Source: a virus. Taken from it: a stretch of 64,000 bases of DNA. The stretch's first letter is position 1, and the number at the start of each line of letters is the position of its first letter. The translations under genes were made by a program, and so were the position numbers. Shown piece by piece: positions 19,030 to 31,675 of the stretch. The notes beneath the pieces were generated by a model. It made no database searches, had not been told where the DNA came from, and worked only from the letters and a program-made list of their open reading frames with translations. The stretch spans positions 21,240 to 85,239 of the IMG/VR virus record IMGVR_UViG_3300010373_000040; one strand, 5' to 3'.

Positions 19030-19341
19030 TTACTTCTTTTTCTTACGTTTCTTTTTTGCTGGTGTAAATCTAGGCCCTCTTTTACTAGAGGGATAGTTAA
19101 ACAATTCTGGTTGAAAGGTATTGTTTATCATATAAGGTTCTTGCATAAATAAATTATGAGAAGACTTGATCTCTTTAATCTCATTACTATCTATCATAAT
19201 AATATCTACAGTACCTTGAGCATGCATTTCAGCAATATGTGAAGCTACACCCATATCCGGGTGCGCAATTACTACAGGTTTTGGATTATAATGTTCCATA
19301 AGATTTAAATTTAGTTCTTCTGACTCTACTTGAAAGAGCAT
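19030..19341 (-). CDS. Hypothetical protein with basic C-terminal tail
   Basis: ORF track; ends PAKKKRKKKK; true start likely MEHYNP. Confidence 0.55.
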   Translation of the reverse strand: MLFQVESEELNLNLMEHYNPKPVVIAHPDMGVASHIAEMHAQGTVDIIMIDSNEIKEIKSSHNLFMQEPYMINNTFQPELFNYPSSKRGPRFTPAKKKRKKKK

Positions 19342-19401
19342 AATCTCAGGCGGCAGATTGTTTTACTTAAACTACAGAAGATCCCTTGACTAAGGGGATT
19401 A

Positions 19402-19761
19402 TTAGAATCTTTCTTTCAAAAGATTATTGTAGAACTCTAATGAGTCTTCTACTTGTTTTAAAGCCTCTTCTTTTGCTTCTACAGCTTCTTTAGCTCTGAT
19501 AATACCAGAAGCATAAGCTTTACCATCTCCAATCAGTACTGTAGGATAGATAGCATTCTCATAAGCTTCTTTAGCATCTTCTAAAGCTGATTTAGCATCT
19601 ACCTCAGAAGAACTCAATAAGGCAATCTGTAGGTGAATAGCTGATCTAGCTTTGATCTCATTCTTAGCTGCCAACTCTTCTACTTTGTCACCTTCAATTC
19701 TAGCTTTTACTGCTTTAACAAATGATGTTAGGTCTTTCACTGCATTTTCTACTTTTGTCAT
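19402..19761 (-). CDS. Coiled-coil hypothetical protein
   Basis: ORF track; Ala/Glu/Lys-rich; followed by a hairpin. Confidence 0.7.
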   Translation of the reverse strand: MTKVENAVKDLTSFVKAVKARIEGDKVEELAAKNEIKARSAIHLQIALLSSSEVDAKSALEDAKEAYENAIYPTVLIGDGKAYASGIIRAKEAVEAKEEALKQVEDSLEFYNNLLKERF

Positions 19762-19780
19762 TTTGTATTTGGTTTAGGGG

Positions 19781-20758
19781 TTATAAAACTATTATTTTGT
19801 TACTTGTTTTTACTTTACTAATTAGAATTGGTTGTTCATCTTGTTGGCTATGTAAATCTACTAAATCATCCCATACAGCAATTTTTGCTTTATCTGATTC
19901 ATCTAAAGGTATGCCTATACGCATTTTCATATCTATTTTAAAATCTGGTATAAACCATTCCTCTATTTTAGGAGCTGGTGTTACAATAGTAGCCCACCCA
20001 TATCTATCTGACCAGATTAAACCATCTCCAAATTCAGAAACGATTCTTTTGCTACCATTGTATATATCCTGATATATAGGACCTTTTACTACCCCCTTTA
20101 ATTTTCTATTTATATTATCCCACTCTGAGAATTGAAATTCACTACCTTCAACAAACCCTCTTCTAATAGCTTCTTGAATTAGTTCTTGTTCTGTAGGTTC
20201 TTTTGAGTCTTCTATAACAATACCTTGATTTAGCACAGATTCAAAAGCAGTCTCATCTTTAGGTTTAGTAACAGAAGCTATTTCTTCTGGAGTTGCTTTT
20301 CTATAAGTTTCTTTAGGAAAACAGTATCCTGTTACAAAGGCATTATTATTTTTAATAATTTCTGCTTTTTGTAAACTACCTACAGTAAACGGTGAACCAA
20401 ATGAACTTAACAACACTATATAATTCTCAGGTATTTTTCCATCTTTAACTATCAAATCAGGATGCCCTTCTGGTAAGTACTGCTGGATTTCAAACTCAGG
20501 CTCTTTACTCTTACCTTTCTGAGCTAAATATTCAGCTTCTGTTATAAACCATTCTTTAGGTTTAAAGCAGGTAGTTAGACTAGTACCTAATACTTCTGTT
20601 TTTGTATTGTGTCCATTCACACTATAAGTGTAAGAATCTATACATGTTATTGGATAGGCTGTGTCTTTTGTTAAATCTCTTCTAAAAGATTCTAACTGGC
20701 TCCAAGATTCTAGTGTCTCTATATCTGATCTTAAATATACTATATCTCCATTTTTCAT
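19781..20758 (-). CDS. Multi-domain hypothetical protein
   Basis: ORF track; start moved to MKNGDI, downstream of a hairpin. Confidence 0.65.
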   Translation of the reverse strand: MKNGDIVYLRSDIETLESWSQLESFRRDLTKDTAYPITCIDSYTYSVNGHNTKTEVLGTSLTTCFKPKEWFITEAEYLAQKGKSKEPEFEIQQYLPEGHPDLIVKDGKIPENYIVLLSSFGSPFTVGSLQKAEIIKNNNAFVTGYCFPKETYRKATPEEIASVTKPKDETAFESVLNQGIVIEDSKEPTEQELIQEAIRRGFVEGSEFQFSEWDNINRKLKGVVKGPIYQDIYNGSKRIVSEFGDGLIWSDRYGWATIVTPAPKIEEWFIPDFKIDMKMRIGIPLDESDKAKIAVWDDLVDLHSQQDEQPILISKVKTSNKIIVL

Positions 20759-20860
20759 ATTCTTTAGTTTAAAGTAAATAAGAGGTTGATACATAATACC
20801 AACCTCTCTAACCTCTATTACAAATGAAAAACAGGGTGAATACCCACCCTGTAAATCTAA

Positions 20861-21232
20861 CTATTGCACTGTATAGTAACTAGTATCATTAGGAGGGCAA
20901 TATAAATCAAAGTCCCTCACTACTGTACTATCACTATTCCATAGATGATAGGATATTGTTCTACCATTAGGATAGCATTGGTTGCCGGCATTCACACTAT
21001 ATGAAGCAGGATTACCATAACTAATTAGAGTATCTCTATAGACCATTGGATATGGTCTAATGATATACTCCATATTCCAATCCTGAGAATAGTTAACGGT
21101 GTTGTATGCAATAGCACATCCACTAACATTATTACTAGGCTTTGGATCATTTTTCTTCTTACATGAAGAGAGGTTTAATATAGTAGATAGTACTACTATA
21201 AACATTACGAGCATTAACAATTGTTTTTTCAT
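20861..21232 (-). CDS. Predicted lipoprotein
   Basis: Lipobox ILNLSS-CKKK typical of Bacteroidota lipoproteins. Confidence 0.7.
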   Translation of the reverse strand: MKKQLLMLVMFIVVLSTILNLSSCKKKNDPKPSNNVSGCAIAYNTVNYSQDWNMEYIIRPYPMVYRDTLISYGNPASYSVNAGNQCYPNGRTISYHLWNSDSTVVRDFDLYCPPNDTSYYTVQ

Positions 21233-21286
21233 TTTTACTTAATTTAGAGGTTAACTTATTTATAATCACAGGGTATTCTGTGATAG

Positions 21287-21395
21287 TCATCTATCAAGGT
21301 TTCGATCCTTGTAATAATAGAATTAACCCTGAAACTTCACTCATTGAGCTACTCAAGAACTATTAAAGCCACCCTACTTAAAAGGCACTAGATGA
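21287..21395 (-). ncRNA. tRNA-like structured RNA with expanded anticodon arm
   Basis: Acceptor-like TCATCTA/TAGATGA; T-arm CAAGG-ATCGAAA-CCTTG; GCC/GGC and TAATAG/CTATTA stems. Confidence 0.45.
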
Positions 21396-21480
21396 TATCT
21401 TCAATTCAATTTAATCTGTTTTACTAACCAATCCATAAGGATTACAAAAGCTAAGAAACATGTTAAGAATAGTATCATAT

Positions 21481-21684
21481 TTACACATAGTTAGGTACGT
21501 CATTCACTGATTCATACTTATCCATTATCTGGTCAAAATCTTCATCTAAAGGATAACCTTTTTCTAATAGAGTGACAGCATTGTTTAATTGTTCTTTTCC
21601 TAGCATTTTACCTATCATTGTGTCTCCATTCTCAATGAGGTTTATTCTAGCATTTTGCAGGATTTCTAAGATTGAAATTGACAT
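21481..21684 (-). CDS. Hypothetical protein
   Basis: ORF track. Confidence 0.65.
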   Translation of the reverse strand: MSISILEILQNARINLIENGDTMIGKMLGKEQLNNAVTLLEKGYPLDEDFDQIMDKYESVNDVPNYV

Positions 21685-21864
21685 AGTTTTACAAGTTAAA
21701 GATTATTGAATTACTAAACAACTACCCACATACATAGACCTATAATTGATCTTATCATGGATATTAAAGCTTTTAGAGCCACTTTTGAAGTACTTATCCA
21801 TAACCTCTGAGGTTTGGTAGTACTTATACTGTTGAGAGTTTCCGTAGATGAACATGGTTATTTA

Positions 21865-22128
21865 CTATTTAGAGGCTATACATGCTTTAACATCACAAAC
21901 ATTAACATATCTGCCCCATAATGTAGGAACAGCTTGTTTATAGGTATCAATAGAGCCAGAGTTAGGCTGGTATCTACACCACTCCTTAATAGCAATAGGC
22001 TCTCTATTATCACAAAAGTATATTGTTACTAAGTATAGCTTCTTTTCAGGTAGGCTAGAGTGTATCCAGAATATTAATCCTGCTATCCCAATAACTATTC
22101 CTAGAATCCATTTTGATACTTCATTCAT
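21865..22128 (-). CDS. Membrane-anchored hypothetical protein
   Basis: N-terminal TM helix. Confidence 0.6.
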   Translation of the reverse strand: MNEVSKWILGIVIGIAGLIFWIHSSLPEKKLYLVTIYFCDNREPIAIKEWCRYQPNSGSIDTYKQAVPTLWGRYVNVCDVKACIASK

Positions 22129-22130
22129 AA

Positions 22131-22346
22131 CTATTCATTTAAAATGTGATTTTCAACAAAGTCAACCAACTGGTCAACTGTAATACTATTGGTATCATCC
22201 TGTAGATCATGGTCTAATAGGTATGTTTGATAGATTTTGTAGTATTCTACTATTGTAGATACTTTTAATGGTTCTTTTACTTTAGTAAATAAAGGTTTTC
22301 TTTCTTCTGGATCTTCTTGTTCAAATCCTACAATCTGTATAGTCAT
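22131..22346 (-). CDS. Hypothetical protein
   Basis: ORF track. Confidence 0.55.
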   Translation of the reverse strand: MTIQIVGFEQEDPEERKPLFTKVKEPLKVSTIVEYYKIYQTYLLDHDLQDDTNSITVDQLVDFVENHILNE

Positions 22347-22359
22347 AACAATAAGGGTT

Positions 22360-22386
22360 TAAAAGCCCTCAATTAAGAGGGCTTAG
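22360..22386 (-). terminator. Intrinsic terminator
   Basis: AAGCCCTC-aattaa-GAGGGCTT with T tail on the minus strand. Confidence 0.6.
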
Positions 22387-22474
22387 GTTTAACACAAATA
22401 CAATTTAACAATACCCATCATAAGAGTGTGCCTGTTAATACAAATGTGCTGTCTAGTTTTTAGTTTGATTCTTT

Positions 22475-22774
22475 TCATAACATCGAAGGATAATCCATAA
22501 TAATAAGTGATTGTGGTTTTGGGTTTTCGGTCCAGACATTTAGTATTCTCCATTTGTAGCCATTATTTAAGGTTTCAACATTAATAAATGACAATGGTTT
22601 TCTACCATTAAAAGAATCAATTTCTTCTTCATAAGGCTCTGTTAGAATCTTTACAGCCATTTGTTCTCTGTATGGTACAGTTGTTCCTGCTGGATAATCT
22701 TTGCAGTCTGGATTAGTGAAGCATATTCTATAAGAGTTATCACAGGGATATACTATTTTTCCAATATTTGACAT
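22475..22774 (-). CDS. Hypothetical protein
   Basis: ORF track. Confidence 0.6.
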   Translation of the reverse strand: MSNIGKIVYPCDNSYRICFTNPDCKDYPAGTTVPYREQMAVKILTEPYEEEIDSFNGRKPLSFINVETLNNGYKWRILNVWTENPKPQSLIIMDYPSML

Positions 22775-22852
22775 AATTTTATAGTTTAAGGTGAAACAAG
22801 TAATCCTGTAAGGTTATAAACCTTAGTCTGCTATGCACAGGATTATTAATAG

Positions 22853-23374
22853 TTAAACAGCAGAAGGGTTCTCTTTAACCCATGTCTTTAAAGAATCAAT
22901 GTTCTTAGCAGGTAGATATTGACCATTATGCGCTAGAGTTTCTTTAGGTACAAGTTTAAAAGCTTCCTTAAAGTCTGTTTCAAGTCTTTTGAGTGTTTTG
23001 AAAGCTAAAATAGCTTCTGCAAGCTCACTCTTTTTCTTTTTAATGTCAGCTTTATCTGCTAGGTATTGCTTAATAAGCTCTAATACAGGTGCTTGATCTT
23101 CTTTTAACAAGTCTTTAACTTCCATATTATAATGAGAGTTTGACGGCATGTTTAAAGCAATGTAATCCAACTCATAAGAGTGGTTAAATCTTCTTTTGTG
23201 ACCAAAGTATTCAGGATGTTCTTTGTAAGCTTTCATTAAGCTTGCAGGAACTAATTTCTTAGCTTTATCTTGTATTTCTTTTTCTAGTGCTGTGAATTGC
23301 TTTTTTAAAGCATCTTCTTTAGGTTTAGATAATTGATTTGCTAGGCTTTCAGCTAGTTGTTTAGTGATTTTCAT
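22853..23374 (-). CDS. Phage protein, possibly Nmad5-like
   Basis: Helical; MKITKQLAESLA...KTLKRLETDFKEA...LPA pattern. Confidence 0.5.
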   Translation of the reverse strand: MKITKQLAESLANQLSKPKEDALKKQFTALEKEIQDKAKKLVPASLMKAYKEHPEYFGHKRRFNHSYELDYIALNMPSNSHYNMEVKDLLKEDQAPVLELIKQYLADKADIKKKKSELAEAILAFKTLKRLETDFKEAFKLVPKETLAHNGQYLPAKNIDSLKTWVKENPSAV

Positions 23375-23735
23375 ACGATAGTGATTAAATGGTTAAACAG
23401 GATTACAAAAACATTGGTAGATCCTGTATCTTTTACCTAGTAGCCTGTTAATTCAGGCCAGTCTACCAATGTTATCAAATCTATTAGCAGTAGGTCTTCA
23501 TCCTATTAAGGATATATGCTATACACAGAATTGATTGAGTTTTAAGAACCAAAGTTCTCAATAAGATATTTAAGTTCAGCTTGTGAACTATAGGTAAATA
23601 CTACATTGTTTATACTCATTAGAGTGTCGGAAATGATTTTAATACTCATAGTTTTAGGTGTTTAGAGGTTAGTTTTACATTAATTCAGCTAGCAATTCCA
23701 AATTACTATCAGTTATTAGGATTGTTTGAGGCATT

Positions 23736-24083
23736 TTATTTACAAGCATCTAATACTCTGTTTAAAGCCCAATATTCAGGATTGAAATAACCATTTACTA
23801 CAAATGATATGCAAGCAATAGCTATACATAAGAATATTAAATATATAATTACTAGACAGCCCATAATAATCCAAGTTGCATCATTGTCATAAGCTTCTGA
23901 TTCATTAAATTTTACATGTAATTTGAATAGTGCATATCCTAACAATAGTGTGAATATGATCTGAATTAGAGAGATTGTTGCATCTATAGGTGCTTGTTTA
24001 AGTAAGATAGACCACAAATATTGTGAGGTGGTACCCATTTTAGCTGCAAGTTGTTCCAGAAGTTCTTTAGTGTTTGAATCCAT
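23736..24083 (-). CDS. Conserved phage membrane protein
   Basis: LEQLAAKMGTTSQYLWSILLKQA, two TMs, NPEYWAL. Confidence 0.7.
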   Translation of the reverse strand: MDSNTKELLEQLAAKMGTTSQYLWSILLKQAPIDATISLIQIIFTLLLGYALFKLHVKFNESEAYDNDATWIIMGCLVIIYLIFLCIAIACISFVVNGYFNPEYWALNRVLDACK

Positions 24084-24094
24084 ATTTGTAAGGT

Positions 24095-24466
24095 TTAAAT
24101 AATCTCAATTATATTGTATTTATAAGTATCAGATACTTTCCCAGTTATCTCACTCGTATAGCCCCCAATCTTATCTAATTTTTTGTTAATAATTACATTC
24201 ATTCCTACTAATTCTAGTAGTATTTTAGCTAAAGAGCTATTAATCACCACATAAAACTGTTTAGATTTACTCTCTGCTAACTTAGCCCTACAGTATTTAC
24301 CAGTCATGGATTTATTATCACAGACTTCAATACTTAATAGCTGTACAATACTATCACCCTCAGGTAAAGAGTTGGACCAACTAGCTTTCCCCACACTATA
24401 CAATAGGTGTTGATTTAGCTTGGTTAACTGTATTACCTGAGGATTAGCAGTATTAGTAGATACCAT
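24095..24466 (-). CDS. Hypothetical protein (may begin further upstream)
   Basis: ORF track. Confidence 0.55.
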   Translation of the reverse strand: MVSTNTANPQVIQLTKLNQHLLYSVGKASWSNSLPEGDSIVQLLSIEVCDNKSMTGKYCRAKLAESKSKQFYVVINSSLAKILLELVGMNVIINKKLDKIGGYTSEITGKVSDTYKYNIIEII

Positions 24467-24817
24467 AAGCAGGATTTGAACCCTCTAAATAGTCTGTAAA
24501 TTCAGTAAAGGCATCATTCCAATGCATTACTATTTCTTCATCTGTAGTATTAGAAGGAGCTGAGGCGAATATGATTTCTAATTGATTCATGGTTTTAGTG
24601 GTTAGAGGTTTAATTACGCTTCTGATATTTCTATAAGTTCTTTAACATCAGCTATTTCTTCTAGCTGACCAATGGCACCTGAGTATTGAGACTGTAAATA
24701 CATTAGTTTGTATTTCAAAAGAGCTATATATTCAGAGTTTAGGATTTGTATTGTATAGTCACTTGGTTCCATAGTGTTTTAGTTTAAATGTGAGTAATCC
24801 ATAATATGTACCTGGAT

Positions 24818-25033
24818 TTAGGTGTTATTTATGGTTTTTATTAAGTTAGGATTAGTTATGTAGTCATTATTATCTCTAACTAATCTCTTTCTTTTAGTTT
24901 TAGGTTCATGTATCTTACAGTCTACCTTCTCTAGTGAAATTGTATTAGTTTTATGACTTCCACGCTTTTCTACAAGATTATAGATGTTAGTTTTCATATT
25001 GAGTCTAGTTAACAAAATGCACAACACCAGCAA
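24818..25033 (-). CDS. Small basic hypothetical protein
   Basis: ORF track; true start likely MKTNIY. Confidence 0.45.
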   Translation of the reverse strand: MLVLCILLTRLNMKTNIYNLVEKRGSHKTNTISLEKVDCKIHEPKTKRKRLVRDNNDYITNPNLIKTINNT

Positions 25034-25768
25034 TCAGTATCAGCATAGTAATGATAGTTTTTAGTGTTACACTCAGGACACACTTTAAATGCTGGTTCAT
25101 CTAAGTCTTTTGTTATAGCCTGTAGTTTGGCTATTTCTTCAAAGTGTTTATCTATTGCTTGTTGTATTTTATCTTTTACAGTTTTCATAACTATTTATTT
25201 CTTAGATGTTTAAGTATTTCTCTTATATTATAGCTTATGATTAGTAAGACAATTGTGTTCACTGTAGCTATATATGCTATTAGGTTTAGTTCAGGTGTCA
25301 TAGATTTGTTATTTACAATAGTGTGAATAGATGTTTACAGATTGATAGTTTATGCAACAGAGTTGCAATAAGATGATGATAGTAGAATGTTTTGGTGGTA
25401 ATTCTCAGGATAATGTATCAGTTGTGTGGTAATTGCACCATTTAATTTTGCCAACCCACTAGTATAGCCAAATTATATTCTGTAGAAATATTTAAAAACC
25501 ATAGAATATTCTGTTCACCAAATATTATTCTGTCAAAACTATTAATTACAATAGATTATTTGGTTTATAAATTAACTCTCACAAAGTTGCACCTTGCTAT
25601 GTCTTCAGACTTATCCCGTTACTCAATAGAGGCAAATTGGATGAGAGTTAATACATAATTGCATAACCGCATAAGCAGTTTTGCACTTGACATTCATTAA
25701 AACATAGAGTACTATAGATCAATCACATATAAGATGCAATCAAACTATAGTACTATTTAATCTAAAGA

Positions 25769-28245: not shown

Positions 28246-28668
28246 ATGATTAAAGCAATAGTAGATTCAGTAAGTGTTAGTAATGGAGAAGTAACCAAGT
28301 TCTCAGTAATAGATGATGCTAGAGGTACTGTAGGAAGCTTTCAGTTGTTTGAGAGTGATGAGAGTAAATATGGACAGTATAAGGTTGGTGATGAGTTTAG
28401 CTTAGAGTTATTCCCTACTGGGTTTGTTATGCCTGAATACAAACATAAAGAACCTACTTCAGTGGTTGAGCCTATACCAGAGCCTGTAGAAGAACCAACC
28501 TTTATAGATAAGGTGAAAGACTTTTTCACCCCAGCTTCTACTACAGAAAGCCCAGAAACAGTATCTATCACTCCAGAGGTTGTAGTTCCTCCTGTAGAAC
28601 CAACTCCAGGATTAGATGCTCCTACATTTACAGCACCAACTACTGATAGTCCTGCTCCTACAGTATAA
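28246..28668 (+). CDS. Hypothetical protein with Pro/Thr/Glu-rich C-terminal tail
   Basis: ORF track. Confidence 0.7.
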   Translation: MIKAIVDSVSVSNGEVTKFSVIDDARGTVGSFQLFESDESKYGQYKVGDEFSLELFPTGFVMPEYKHKEPTSVVEPIPEPVEEPTFIDKVKDFFTPASTTESPETVSITPEVVVPPVEPTPGLDAPTFTAPTTDSPAPTV

Positions 28669-28779: not shown

Positions 28780-28820
28780 ATCCCTCTGAGGTTAAAATCT
28801 TAGAGGGATTTGTTTGTTTA
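28780..28820 (+). terminator. Intrinsic terminator insulating the tRNA operon promoter
   Basis: ATCCCTCTGAG...CTTAGAGGGAT stem followed by TTGTTTGTTT. Confidence 0.7.
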
Positions 28821-28843
28821 TATTAATCTATCTACTATATTTG
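28813..28843 (+). promoter_or_regulatory. Bacteroidota primary-sigma promoter of the leader-tRNA operon
   Basis: TTTG (28813-16) N19 TATATTTG (28836-43); expected TSS at or near ATG 28848. Confidence 0.75.
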
Positions 28844-28847
28844 TTGC

Positions 28848-28922
28848 ATGAACAATTTATCACTACATCTTCAACCGCAGCGCACTCCCTTATCTAGGGA
28901 AGCAAGTGGTTATTGTGTGTAG
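28848..28922 (+). CDS. Putative attenuator leader peptide MNNLSLHLQPQRTPLSREASGYCV (24 aa)
   Basis: Starts 4 nt after the promoter element; codons 6-12 CTA CAT CTT CAA CCG CAG CGC; ends TAG TAG TAA. Confidence 0.75.
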   Translation: MNNLSLHLQPQRTPLSREASGYCV

Positions 28923-28947: not shown

Positions 28948-28982
28948 ATCCCCTTGCTGAGAAGTTAGGGGATTTCTGTTTT
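28948..28982 (+). terminator. Attenuator terminator upstream of the tRNA array
   Basis: ATCCCCT-TGCT-GAGA-AGTT-AGGGGAT + TTCTGTTTT; 5' arm CTTGCT can alternatively pair with AGCAAG (28901-06). Confidence 0.75.
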
Positions 28983-28990
28983 ATATACAT

Positions 28991-29064
28991 ATAGTGGGAT
29001 AACGGTCAGGTTGTTTACCTGCCTTGGAAGCAGGAGGTCGAGGGTTCAAATCCCTCCCACTATA
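28991..29064 (+). tRNA. tRNA-Pro(TGG)
   Basis: Acceptor ATAGTGG/CCACTAT; anticodon arm CCTGC-CTTGGAA-GCAGG; T-arm GAGGG-TTCAAAT-CCCTC; atypical D-arm; no CCA. Confidence 0.85.
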
Positions 29065-29065
29065 C

Positions 29066-29139
29066 GACACAGGTTTTACGTACTGTCACCTGCCGAGAAA
29101 CAAAAAAGACAACGATACAGTTAGGGAGAGACCTAAACA
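29066..29139 (+). ncRNA. Unidentified structured RNA in tRNA spacer (pseudoknot + hairpin)
   Basis: CAGGT/ACCTG stem; loop ACTGT complementary to ACAGT (29117-21); TTAGG-GAGAGA-CCTAA hairpin. Confidence 0.4.
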
Positions 29140-29140
29140 T

Positions 29141-29212
29141 TTTCCTGTATGCTAATTGGCAGGCAATCTGACTTTGACTCAGATGGTACAAGTTCGAATC
29201 TTGTCGGGAAAA
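29141..29212 (+). tRNA. tRNA-Gln(TTG)
   Basis: TTTCCTG/CGGGAAA; TCTGA-CTTTGAC-TCAGA; ACAAG-TTCGAAT-CTTGT. Confidence 0.92.
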
Positions 29213-29214
29213 CT

Positions 29215-29287
29215 GTAGAGTTGCGCTAAGTGGTTAAGCGGACTGCCTGTGAAGCAGTTTATATGAGTTCGAGCCTCATACTCTACC
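29215..29287 (+). tRNA. tRNA-His(GTG)
   Basis: GTAGAGT/ACTCTAC; ACTGC-CTGTGAA-GCAGT; ATGAG-TTCGAGC-CTCAT; C73. Confidence 0.92.
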
Positions 29288-29290
29288 CAC

Positions 29291-29362
29291 ATCTCTGTAG
29301 ATCAATGAATAGATCAAGTAGCTACGAACTACTAGATAGAGGTTTGAATCCTCTCGGAGATA
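29291..29362 (+). tRNA. tRNA-Arg(ACG)
   Basis: ATCTCTG/CGGAGAT; AGTAG-CTACGAA-CTACT; AGAGG-TTTGAAT-CCTCT. Confidence 0.9.
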
Positions 29363-29365
29363 CCT

Positions 29366-29439
29366 GCCCAATTGGTGGAATTGGTAGACACACAGGTCTT
29401 AGAAACCTGTTTTTATAGGTTCGATTCCTATATTGGGTA
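29366..29439 (+). tRNA. tRNA-Leu(TAG) with short variable loop
   Basis: GCCCAAT/ATTGGGT; Leu-type D-arm GGTGGAATTGGTAGACAC; CAGGT-CTTAGAA-ACCTG; ATAGG-TTCGATT-CCTAT. Confidence 0.9.
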
Positions 29440-29449
29440 CTTTAAAATT

Positions 29450-29487
29450 AAAGGTATGTTCTCTTGTGAGTATGCCTTTTTTTATTT
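29450..29487 (+). terminator. Terminator closing the tRNA operon
   Basis: AAAGGTATG...TATGCCTTT stem followed by a T run. Confidence 0.7.
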
Positions 29488-29562: not shown

Positions 29563-29898
29563 ATGGAAACACTAATGACTTTTGGAGAAGCTCTTGAACT
29601 TGTTAAACAAGGGAAATTGATTTCTAGACAAGGTTGGAATGGTAAAGGTATGTTCATCTTCCAAAGACCTGAAGACAGCATTCACATCAGTACTGTAATT
29701 ACTCAAGTAAAATCGCTCCCTGCTGCAGTAAAGAGCTTTTATACTTCTAGAGTATGGGCTGATTCTGAGAACCAGATGGTTAAATTCACTCCATACTTGT
29801 GTATGAAAGCTGCTGATGATAGCATTGTAAATGGTTGGTTAGCATCTCAGACTGATATGTTGGCTAATGATTGGTCTGAGTTCAGCTACGGAGTATAA
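29563..29898 (+). CDS. tad2: DUF2829 / Thoeris anti-defence 2 (Tad2)-like signal-sponge protein
   Basis: MTFGEALELVKQGKLISRQGWNGKGMF...GWLASQTDMLANDW signature of DUF2829. Confidence 0.85.
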   Translation: METLMTFGEALELVKQGKLISRQGWNGKGMFIFQRPEDSIHISTVITQVKSLPAAVKSFYTSRVWADSENQMVKFTPYLCMKAADDSIVNGWLASQTDMLANDWSEFSYGV

Positions 29899-30913: not shown

Positions 30914-31121
30914 CCTTCCAGAGGCTATAGTATCGAGGATTCAGAAAGCTAGAGGTTTAGCAACTGAATCCTCTTTATCTTTGCAGAAACAAAGGTTAGA
31001 GATTTGTGATAAGTGTCCTGAGAAGAAAATGATAGGGACTGAGGTTTGTGGCCTCTGTGGCTGTTTTTTGCAGCTCAAGACATTAGTAGAAGATGAACAT
31101 TGTCAAATTAAGAAATGGTAG
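30900..31121 (+). CDS. Cys-rich Zn-binding protein (DUF6171-like)
   Basis: RLEICDKC...CGLCGC.LQLKT.....C..KKW; start moved to MSLSNL. Confidence 0.65.
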   Translation: MSLSNLPEAIVSRIQKARGLATESSLSLQKQRLEICDKCPEKKMIGTEVCGLCGCFLQLKTLVEDEHCQIKKW

Positions 31122-31675
31122 ATATAGAAGAAATTACTATAGACAAGCTTATAAACGAATATGGAGGAATTCATATTAGAGGGTATGAAGATTATATAGT
31201 CCTTCCGACAAGTGAAATATTTTCTATAAAGTTCAATACTATAAGAAAATTAGTTCCTCAGATATTACATAAAAATGGAAAACCTTCGGCCTATAGACAA
31301 ATTGTGGTAAGACAGCAGGGCAAAGACCCTGCCAGGAGGTTGATTCACAGAATTGTAGCAGAGACATTCATACCTAATCCAGAAAACAAACCTCAAGTGA
31401 ATCACAAAGATGGTAATGGGTCTAATAACCATGTTGACAACTTAGAGTGGTGTACAGGTCATGAAAATATGGCTCATAGCTTCAGAATATTAAAAAGAAG
31501 AATGGCTGTAGGAGAAAAAGTACATTTAAGTAAACTTACAGAAGAAGAGGTTATAATGATACGAAAAATATATCCAAAGGGACATGCTACACAACAAGAG
31601 TTAGCCAAAATATTCAATTGTCATCCAACAACAATATATTCTGTTTTAAGTTACATAACATGGAAACATATTTAA
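31115..31675 (+). CDS. HNH homing endonuclease with C-terminal HTH
   Basis: IHRIVAETFIPNPENKPQVNHKDGNGSNNHVDNLEWCT; SKLTEEEV...QQELAKIF. Confidence 0.9.
   Translation: MVDIEEITIDKLINEYGGIHIRGYEDYIVLPTSEIFSIKFNTIRKLVPQILHKNGKPSAYRQIVVRQQGKDPARRLIHRIVAETFIPNPENKPQVNHKDGNGSNNHVDNLEWCTGHENMAHSFRILKRRMAVGEKVHLSKLTEEEVIMIRKIYPKGHATQQELAKIFNCHPTTIYSVLSYITWKHI

Follow-up and report, generated by a model that had tools for sequence, protein, structure and literature searches.

Several described systems come close to one or another property of the locus reported here, a cluster of five transfer RNA (tRNA) genes behind a putative leader peptide in a 64,000-nucleotide stretch of viral DNA (positions 21,240-85,239 of the IMG/VR record IMGVR_UViG_3300010373_000040; henceforth the window, in whose numbering positions are given). 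Leader-peptide attenuators are familiar from the trp, his, leu, thr, ilvGMEDA and pheST operons. The methyltransferase TrmD methylates G37 of tRNAs with G36-G37, and the resulting class of tRNAs with 1-methylguanosine at this position (m1G37) is given for Salmonella in a review. The tRNA array of Anabaena is reportedly controlled by a repressor, TrcR, and phage tRNAs that escape host anticodon nucleases are said to be the subject of work by Azam et al. from 2024, cited alongside that of van den Berg et al. The Anabaena L-array serves as a tRNA reserve that is switched on when protein synthesis is hampered (PMC8421152), and changes in phage anticodon loops are proposed as a means of escaping the anticodon nucleases of the host (van den Berg et al. 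2023; PMC10264068). Finally, the toxin VapC-mt11 of Mycobacterium tuberculosis requires nucleotides 36 and 37 to be GG and cleaves on the 3' side of the latter; in vitro it is efficient on tRNAs for Arg, Pro, Leu and Gln, and in vivo it cuts two tRNAs only (PMC6459853).

On balance we lean, with a little more belief than doubt, towards reading the five genes of the window as a mobile, self-contained back-up tRNA operon that is induced by stalling, serves the codons beginning with C (CNN codons) and is free of m1G37. Like the attenuators of amino-acid operons, the locus has a short ORF (open reading frame) rich in regulatory codons before hairpins that are predicted to be mutually exclusive antiterminator and terminator; unlike them, it would regulate tRNA genes, by means of a multivalent sensor with five amino acids in seven codons. 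It would resemble the Anabaena L-array in being an inducible spare tRNA set, and differ from it in using a leader peptide where Anabaena reportedly uses TrcR. As in the main text of van den Berg et al., phage tRNAs differ from those of the host in the anticodon loop and are proposed replacements for depleted host tRNAs, and codon compensation does not fit (PMC10264068). Each nuclease-escape case in these sources is about one tRNA and a nuclease known by name (VapC, PrrC, colicins D and E5, retron effectors), whereas here a whole codon quadrant is involved, with a shared change from G37 to A37, a leader gate and a nuclease that is hypothetical. The terms 'position 37', 'A37' and 'G37' do not occur in the main text of PMC10264068 (supplements not covered).

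The five genes are called on the + strand by both ARAGORN and the Rfam model RF00005, which scores them at 50.1-63.8 bits against a gathering cut-off of 29 and covers model positions 1-71 of 71 in every case. They are the sole tRNAs of the whole 85,239-bp virus genome (5 matches in a genome-wide Rfam tRNA search), which has direct terminal repeats and is estimated to be 100% complete; specifically, no tRNA was called by ARAGORN or the genome-wide Rfam search at 19315-25652 on the - strand of the window. All five have a 7-nucleotide anticodon loop with U33, and together they provide one tRNA per CNN box or half-box. The original prediction, made from the sequence alone, had described them as a minimal decoder set for this quadrant of the code, which they are, and ARAGORN, RF00005 and direct reading of the sequence returned its five anticodon loops and A37 coordinates without change (Table 1). 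Each of the five anticodons ends in G and is followed by A, so that G36 and A37 are combined in 5/5 tRNAs. Since TrmD acts on G37 and all five have A37, they cannot be TrmD substrates: G36 of the substrate class is present in 5/5 and the methyl-acceptor G37 absent in 5/5, which places the array outside that class, again as had been predicted. Independence of TrmD and m1G37 follows from the sequence taken together with the established specificity of TrmD and, given A37, nothing that requires G36-G37 or m1G37 can recognise these tRNAs. By chance, G36 in five of five would arise with a probability of roughly 3e-4 (from 124/621, about 20%, for G36 in large phage arrays); since the set is an inherited cassette (compare phage phi19:1, below), chance assembly is the wrong null.

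The phage is probably a crAss-like phage of soil, with Bacteroidota as its probable hosts. Its TerL is 34-36% identical to that of crAss-like phages, with Flavobacterium and Cellulophaga phages among the 160 records matched, its G+C content is about 34%, and the stretch is present in two soil-metagenome DNA runs, from which it may derive; no RNA run was listed as containing it. Position 37 was surveyed in 81 genomes drawn evenly across Bacteroidota by patterns for the anticodon loop plus T arm, with ambiguous rows checked by ARAGORN. The G37 and A37 counts were read by eye from the matches, and rows unlike tRNA were left out as chance matches (for His, 7 'A' rows and a few off-type rows, all from genomes that also have a G37 row). 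G37 was found in tRNA-His of 74/81 genomes (no tRNA-like A37), in Gln-UUG of 78/81 (A37 only in 1, no match in 2), in Leu-UAG with a long arm of at least 71/81 (A37 in 1 among the matches listed), in Pro-UGG of 46/81 by a T32 pattern, and in Arg-ACG of 56/81, with A37 in 18/81. In Bacteroidota the CNN-reading class carries G36-G37, Arg(ACG) mostly so; the statement in the original prediction that His, Gln and Arg(ACG) have G37 in this phylum was therefore correct. Position 37 of the phage differs from the Bacteroidota majority in 5/5 tRNAs (a comparison at the level of the phylum), and for Leu and Arg the phage loop departs from the commonest host loops (CTTAGGA and CTACGGA) at this position alone. 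The GGTTTGAATCC T arm and the D loop of the phage tRNA-Arg match one Bacteroidota Arg-ACG group, in which 16/16 have G37.

Among random prokaryotes, Pro-UGG had G37 in 40 cases and A37 in 1 (ARAGORN, from 120 loci found by a Pro-UGG pattern), which, with the Leu-UAG counts above, upholds the claim that A37 is atypical for these two tRNAs in cells. The sole A37 form in that sample lies in a 15-tRNA accessory, phage-like array of a Chryseobacterium genome (locus L134), whose housekeeping Leu-GAG, Leu-UAG, Arg-ACG, Arg-UCG, His and Gln tRNAs have G37. Within Bacteroidota, Pro-UGG with A37 was confined to accessory arrays (genomes G006, G033 and G101, confirmed by ARAGORN, and G113, by pattern only). 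By contrast, A37 is common in phage contigs. In viral contigs, 107 of the 119 matches listed were confirmed by ARAGORN as Pro-UGG with A37; the 119 matches listed in an R37 scan comprised 70 with A, of which 63 were confirmed, and 49 with G, the latter consisting of 27 confirmed Pro-UGG, 5 Pro-GGG and 17 others. The other G36 tRNAs in arrays with Pro-A37 also have mostly A37 (among the matches listed, A:G was 39:13 for Leu-UAG, 47:13 for Gln-UUG and 26:4 for Arg-ACG, and His had 30 A, 10 G and 1 C), and the Pro-A37 viral loci listed span G+C contents of 0.28-0.65. A37 beside G36 is thus found widely among phages and hardly ever in cells, and the contrast at position 37 is with cells, not with other phages. 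Small Pro-A37 arrays are richer in other G36 tRNAs than arrays of at least 15 (38/103 vs 124/621; Fisher p = 3e-4), and 11 arrays among the matches listed are CNN-only.

As a separate observation, 12 viral loci among the matches listed hold both the G37 and the A37 form of tRNA-Pro(UGG), several of them side by side (our own count: L179, L183, L194, L198, L209, L217, L220, L227, L228, L243, L261 and L275). The presence of both in one locus is a hint that the two forms do different jobs.

Classically, phage tRNAs are viewed as ordinary codon supplementation, i.e., tRNAs for codons that the phage uses more than its host, and CCT/CCA, CAA and CTT/CTA are fairly common in this phage. We nevertheless consider this explanation very improbable here, judging from the phage codon counts alone (84 crude ORFs, 24,454 codons). 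CGN makes up 38 of the 832 Arg codons, or 1.6 per 1000 codons, while AGA and AGG account for 95%; CGC occurs 2 times and CCG 14 times in all. Because CGN is so scarce and tRNA-Arg(ACG) is kept all the same, codon supply fails to explain the set. Moreover, the most-used Leu and Arg codons, TTA and AGA, have no phage tRNA, and CNN codons are merely 12.8% of the total.

A second line of evidence comes from the sequence upstream of tRNA-Pro. A terminator-like hairpin there closes the preceding gene, so that the tRNA unit would start afresh, and with a second one behind tRNA-Leu the array is predicted to be a transcription unit of its own (Table 1). The promoter-like box TATATTTG matches TAnnTTTG, the consensus of the Bacteroidota -7 promoter box, and its closeness to the ATG suggests a leaderless or near-leaderless start; as read from the sequences, TAnnTTTG also lies at most 25 nucleotides upstream of the leader ATG in loci L273 and L227 and in phi19:1. 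Seven codons in a row in the leader are CNN; they specify Leu, His, Gln, Pro and Arg, precisely those amino acids that the array serves, and include the rare codons CGC and CCG. A CNN run of 7 was reached in 0.002 of shuffles (260 nucleotides upstream).

Constrained folds of the nascent RNA, for which the terminator arms of the window and of L243 were named by hand, point to a switch. When the ribosome was stalled on any one of codons 6-12, 8/10 nucleotides of the terminator 5' arm were paired with GCAAGTGGTT. With no ribosome, GCAAGTGGTT was held by the sensor region and 2/10 nucleotides of the arm were paired upstream; with the ribosome at the leader stop codon, 4/10 were. The switch was reproduced by 3/400 shuffles of the upstream part, and the fold z-score was -3.6. 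Leader, terminator and antiterminator would form a design like that of the trp-type attenuators, the terminator ending 6 nucleotides upstream of tRNA-Pro. In such a design, ribosomes that slow on CNN codons would free GCAAGTGGTT, which would pair with the terminator 5' arm and let transcription continue into the five tRNA genes; under normal CNN decoding the ribosome would reach the stop codon, the terminator would form and the array would stay low. The phage would in this way keep translating with its A37 set when the host versions fail.

Table 1. Observed and predicted features of the tRNA unit and its surroundings (window positions)
Feature	Position	Strand	Details
Terminator-like hairpin	28780-28809	+	13 pairs, T-rich tail; from terminator scan; closes upstream ORF 28246-28668
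Promoter-like box TATATTTG	28836-28843	+	Fits TAnnTTTG; 4 nucleotides upstream of leader ATG
Putative leader ORF	28848-28922	+	24 codons, MNNLSLHLQPQRTPLSREASGYCV then stop
Putative sensor run	28863-28883	+	Leader codons 6-12, CTA CAT CTT CAA CCG CAG CGC
Predicted antiterminator segment GCAAGTGGTT	28902-28911	+	From constrained folds
Predicted attenuator terminator	28948-28984	+	Hairpin ATCCCCTTGCTGAGAAGTTAGGGGAT 28948-28973, -13.6 kcal/mol; tail TTCTGTTTTAT 28974-28984
tRNA-Pro(UGG)	28991-29065	+	Loop CTTGGAA, A37 at 29028
Spacer motif GTTAGGGAGAGACCTAAAC	29120-29138	+	In Pro-Gln spacer; small hairpin possible
tRNA-Gln(UUG)	29141-29213	+	Loop CTTTGAC, A37 at 29177
tRNA-His(GUG)	29215-29288	+	Loop CTGTGAA, A37 at 29252; C73, T at -1
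tRNA-Arg(ACG)	29291-29364	+	Loop CTACGAA, A37 at 29327; T arm GGTTTGAATCC, D loop TGAATAG
tRNA-Leu(UAG)	29366-29440	+	Loop CTTAGAA, A37 at 29403; 75 nucleotides, 5-nucleotide variable loop
Terminator-like hairpin	29450-29479	+	T tail; from terminator scan; closes tRNA unit
Tad2-like (Thoeris anti-defence 2-like) gene	29563-29898	+	PF11195, E = 2e-24, 86.4 bits; next downstream of tRNA unit

The arrangement recurs elsewhere. Leader codons mirror the locus's own array in four independent replicates, namely L227 (array Gln, His, Pro; leader run PQPQQHPQ), L272 (Pro, Leu-UAA, Leu-UAG, Gln; LQQLLP), L285 (Pro, Leu, Tyr, Leu, Ser; LPSSYLSLSPSYS) and L243 (Pro, Gln, Tyr, Glu, Lys, Gly, Thr; 17 matching leader codons), and further in L273 (Arg, His, Gln, Glu, Pro; QRLPEH), L155 (Pro, Tyr, Gln, Glu; YQQPEP), L218 and phi19:1. 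In L227, GAATGGGG complements the terminator arm exactly; for L243 the folds gave no clear switch (6/11 in every state). An amino-acid-set test of 93 arrays with 2-8 amino-acid types gave p <= 0.001 in 3 (0.09 expected) and p <= 0.01 in 4 (0.93 expected). It replaced a crude cognate-run test of 270 tRNA clusters, which had returned a weak excess (6 at p <= 0.01 vs 2.7 expected) and one of whose top matches, at L218, lay in the terminator stem, outside any ORF. For the large arrays L134 and L160 the leaders were uninformative, with 31/45 residues in a 13-amino-acid set by our own count, which is about chance.

A homologue of the whole cassette was found in the Cellulophaga phage phi19:1 (KC821607.1, about 31057-31495), which has tRNAs for Pro-UGG, Gln-UUG, His-GUG, Leu-UAG and Arg-ACG, i.e., the same five anticodons, with A37 throughout and a 75-nucleotide Leu-UAG without a long arm. 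The start of the leader, ATGAACAAT ... CAT.TTCAAC, is homologous in the alignment, and parts of the tRNAs and of the spacer align as well. The phi19:1 leader, MNNNTIHIQRLPQPKRF..., has the run CAA CGA CTT CCG CAA CCG, with a terminator behind it that stands directly ahead of tRNA-Pro, and in silico it too passes from stall to antiterminator, with 9/9 nucleotides paired when the ribosome is stalled and 0/9 when it is at the stop codon. The two phages differ in family and habitat: phi19:1 is a marine siphovirus of the Assiduviridae with Cellulophaga baltica #19 as its host, whereas the window comes from a soil crAss-like phage, and the order of Leu and Arg is swapped. Given this homology, the cassette is common to unrelated phage families. 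In KC821607.1 the leader is not annotated, and of the five tRNAs four are.

Such sharing could also mean inherited baggage, i.e., a cassette that spreads as a unit among Bacteroidota phages, its A37 and CNN make-up being ancestral and of little present function. The homologous cassette in phi19:1 fits this, as does its absence from relatives of the window phage (genome G003 has 0 tRNAs and G002 two other tRNAs). All five tRNAs score well as tRNAs, however, and despite sequence divergence both phages retain the predicted leader, antiterminator and terminator in intact form, which argues for selection; we therefore regard baggage as quite improbable.

Further copies of the cassette were sought in several ways. 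TerL searches of viral and metagenome contigs returned relatives at 97-98%, none reaching the tRNAs (L001 and L342 begin inside TerL, and L343 extends only about 3.4 kb upstream of it), and the exact tRNA-Pro pattern had no match in metagenome contigs. Against cultured phages, blastn with the array gave no hit at E <= 1e-5 and single-tRNA fragments only at E <= 10; with the L201 array as query it did not reach phi19:1. A scan for the D-arm pattern of tRNA-Pro gave 1 true tRNA among 7 matches, one for the leader start found phi19:1 alone among 10 matches, and one for the Gln pattern returned generic Gln tRNAs and 4 loci without a tRNA by ARAGORN or Rfam. In the literature, we located no report of attenuator-controlled tRNA genes, no account of the A37 set or attenuator of phi19:1 and, supplements being outside the search, no report of A37 or TrmD independence in phage tRNAs; neither the A37 class signature nor the leader gate has been described in the searchable literature.

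What would make CNN decoding fail is a further question. Our first, tentative choice is that host G36-G37 tRNAs are damaged or depleted by a tRNA-targeting defence. Plain demand in the burst of late translation is the next most likely cause, in which case A37 would let newly made tRNAs work without having to await TrmD. A defence aimed at G36-G37 tRNAs, as the original prediction had proposed, is plausible. VapC-mt11 offers a precedent in that its efficiently cut substrates are CNN decoders like the class of the array. It belongs to another phylum and is there the toxin of a toxin-antitoxin system, not a shown anti-phage system, and it serves as precedent only. Because the CNN decoders of Bacteroidota are G36-G37, an enzyme of the VapC-mt11 type in that phylum would hit the whole CNN class. 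Possible, if rather doubtful, is the more specific proposal that Bacteroidota have an undescribed immune effector, which would cut or modify tRNAs on recognising a G36-G37 or m1G37 loop and for which the A37 cassette would be the antidote and the leader the attack sensor, passed between unrelated phage families. Since the Bacteroidota CNN decoders carry G37, such an effector would silence a quarter of the code at once.

The company kept by similar tRNAs is of interest in this regard. The unusual D arm of the window tRNA-Pro recurs in L134, L160, L161 and L155, and three of these loci are chromosomal accessory arrays of Bacteroidota with the same odd tRNA-Pro(A37) and an armless Leu-UAG (L134, G006:C2:21800-30800; L160, G033:C3:445000-453000; L161, G101:C1:222000-230000). 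Downstream of the L134 and L160 arrays lie genes for an Rnl2-type RNA ligase, cREC_REC (a cyclic-phosphate-processing receiver domain) and a phosphoesterase (metallophosphoesterase), as well as R2K ATP-grasp proteins and RNase T, and one accessory array is preceded by a MoxR-vWA ternary-system gene. These neighbours are the company expected of tRNA damage and repair. Along with the CNN-rich leader, the Tad2-like gene next to the array and the example of VapC-mt11, they lend contextual support to the proposed defence or shut-off factor acting on m1G37 tRNAs.

The most serious rival dispenses with defence altogether. If tRNAs made in a burst outrun host TrmD, tRNAs with A37 would work at once, and the attenuator would match supply to demand. 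Without its methyl group, a tRNA with G37 tends to shift frame and, in the case of Pro, is charged poorly. In keeping with this rival, viral contigs that differ widely in G+C content commonly have A37 in Pro-UGG and Leu-UAG, and attenuator-gated arrays exist for non-CNN sets too. It leaves unexplained, however, why the set is CNN-only and has a decoder for the hardly used CGN codons, why homologous tRNAs stand beside RNA-repair genes, and why 12 arrays among the matches listed contain both forms of Pro-UGG. We consider this supply-and-maturation explanation unlikely, although it remains a serious rival.

In principle, the phage itself could disable host m1G37 tRNAs or TrmD as a shut-off, to which an A37 set would be immune. 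This is logically consistent with the A37 set, but nothing selective would be gained, since host and phage mRNAs use the same codons. Furthermore, Pfam detected no tRNA nuclease, methyltransferase or S-adenosylmethionine-degrading domain in the ORFs scanned, i.e., the 30 longer of the 42 crude ORFs on the - strand and 10 near the array. This is a weak argument, most ORFs being without a family (4/30 on the - strand had any: primase zinc ribbon, DnaB-like, helicase and DUF551). We give a shut-off by the phage very little credence.

Several points weigh against a stall-induced, m1G37-free back-up operon, and against defence as its cause. The host is deduced from the crAss-like TerL and the likeness of the Arg tRNA to one Bacteroidota group, and the switch is predicted from sequence and in silico folds. 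With respect to A37, it is already present in Arg-ACG of 18 of the 81 Bacteroidota genomes, and its majority among phage G36 tRNAs at 28-65% G+C means that it may be an old trait of phage lineages and not host-specific. In VapC-mt11 assays, G37A in a tRNA-Pro moved the cut by one base and cleavage was kept (PMC6459853), so that A37 would not protect Pro-UGG from that enzyme. No tRNA-directed enzyme was detected by Pfam in the 30 - strand ORFs scanned. As for the gate, arrays elsewhere with the same control hold Tyr, Ser, Glu, Lys, Gly and Thr tRNAs, and the design is therefore not G36-specific. Six frames of the genome contain 12 runs of at least 7 C-triplets, of which one other covers all five amino acids, and the amino-acid-set test for the window leader gave p = 0.04, which is moderate alone. 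TAnnTTTG is not enriched in the window (84 matches vs 77.6 expected), making a lone site weak. The T tract of the attenuator is interrupted and its hairpin was not listed by the consensus terminator scan, presumably because its 12-nucleotide loop region lies beyond the 3-8 limit of the scan. Finally, tRNAs are absent from a relative whose genome is complete and whose TerL is 40% identical.

Other features of the locus deserve brief mention. In the Pro-Gln spacer, the GGAGAGAC core of the motif GTTAGGGAGAGACCTAAAC is invariant in the phi19:1 alignment (L354, about 655-675) and the rest partly conserved; the motif may be a processing signal. For tRNA-His, taken as 29214-29288, the G-1 normally needed by the bacterial histidyl-tRNA synthetase (HisRS) is not encoded in the usual register, because the base before G1 is T. 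The window tRNA-Leu(UAG) lacks the long variable arm typical of bacterial (class II) tRNA-Leu. Short Leu(tag) tRNAs are frequent in the viral sample (loci L174-L341), where 30/56 are at most 78 nucleotides long. Reassignment of a sense codon by the armless Leu-UAG was considered and rejected: in relatives, CTN aligns with Leu at 31% (TTR at 29%), CCN with Pro at 46%, CAY with His at 35% and CAR with Gln at 22%, the 16 aligned positions for CGN being too few to judge. Downstream, the Tad2-like gene is a neighbour that may or may not act with the tRNAs. Further on, among small genes ahead of the terminase, lies one for an HNH endonuclease with HTH (PF13392; phrog_59) at 31115-31675.

For more than 50 years it has been asked why phages have tRNAs of their own. 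In the array described here, the make-up of the set tracks a chemical class, anticodons ending in G, and not codon use, and a shared base change removes dependence on an essential host methyltransferase. A putative sensor of its own for slow CNN decoding points to an on-demand tRNA back-up, an idea that is testable, and the cultured pair of Cellulophaga baltica and phi19:1 puts a homologous cassette within experimental reach. TrmD is under study as an antibiotic target, for which A37 tRNAs are a natural bypass. If a defence against the m1G37 tRNA class is indeed what the cassette answers, it would be a new kind of anti-phage immunity.

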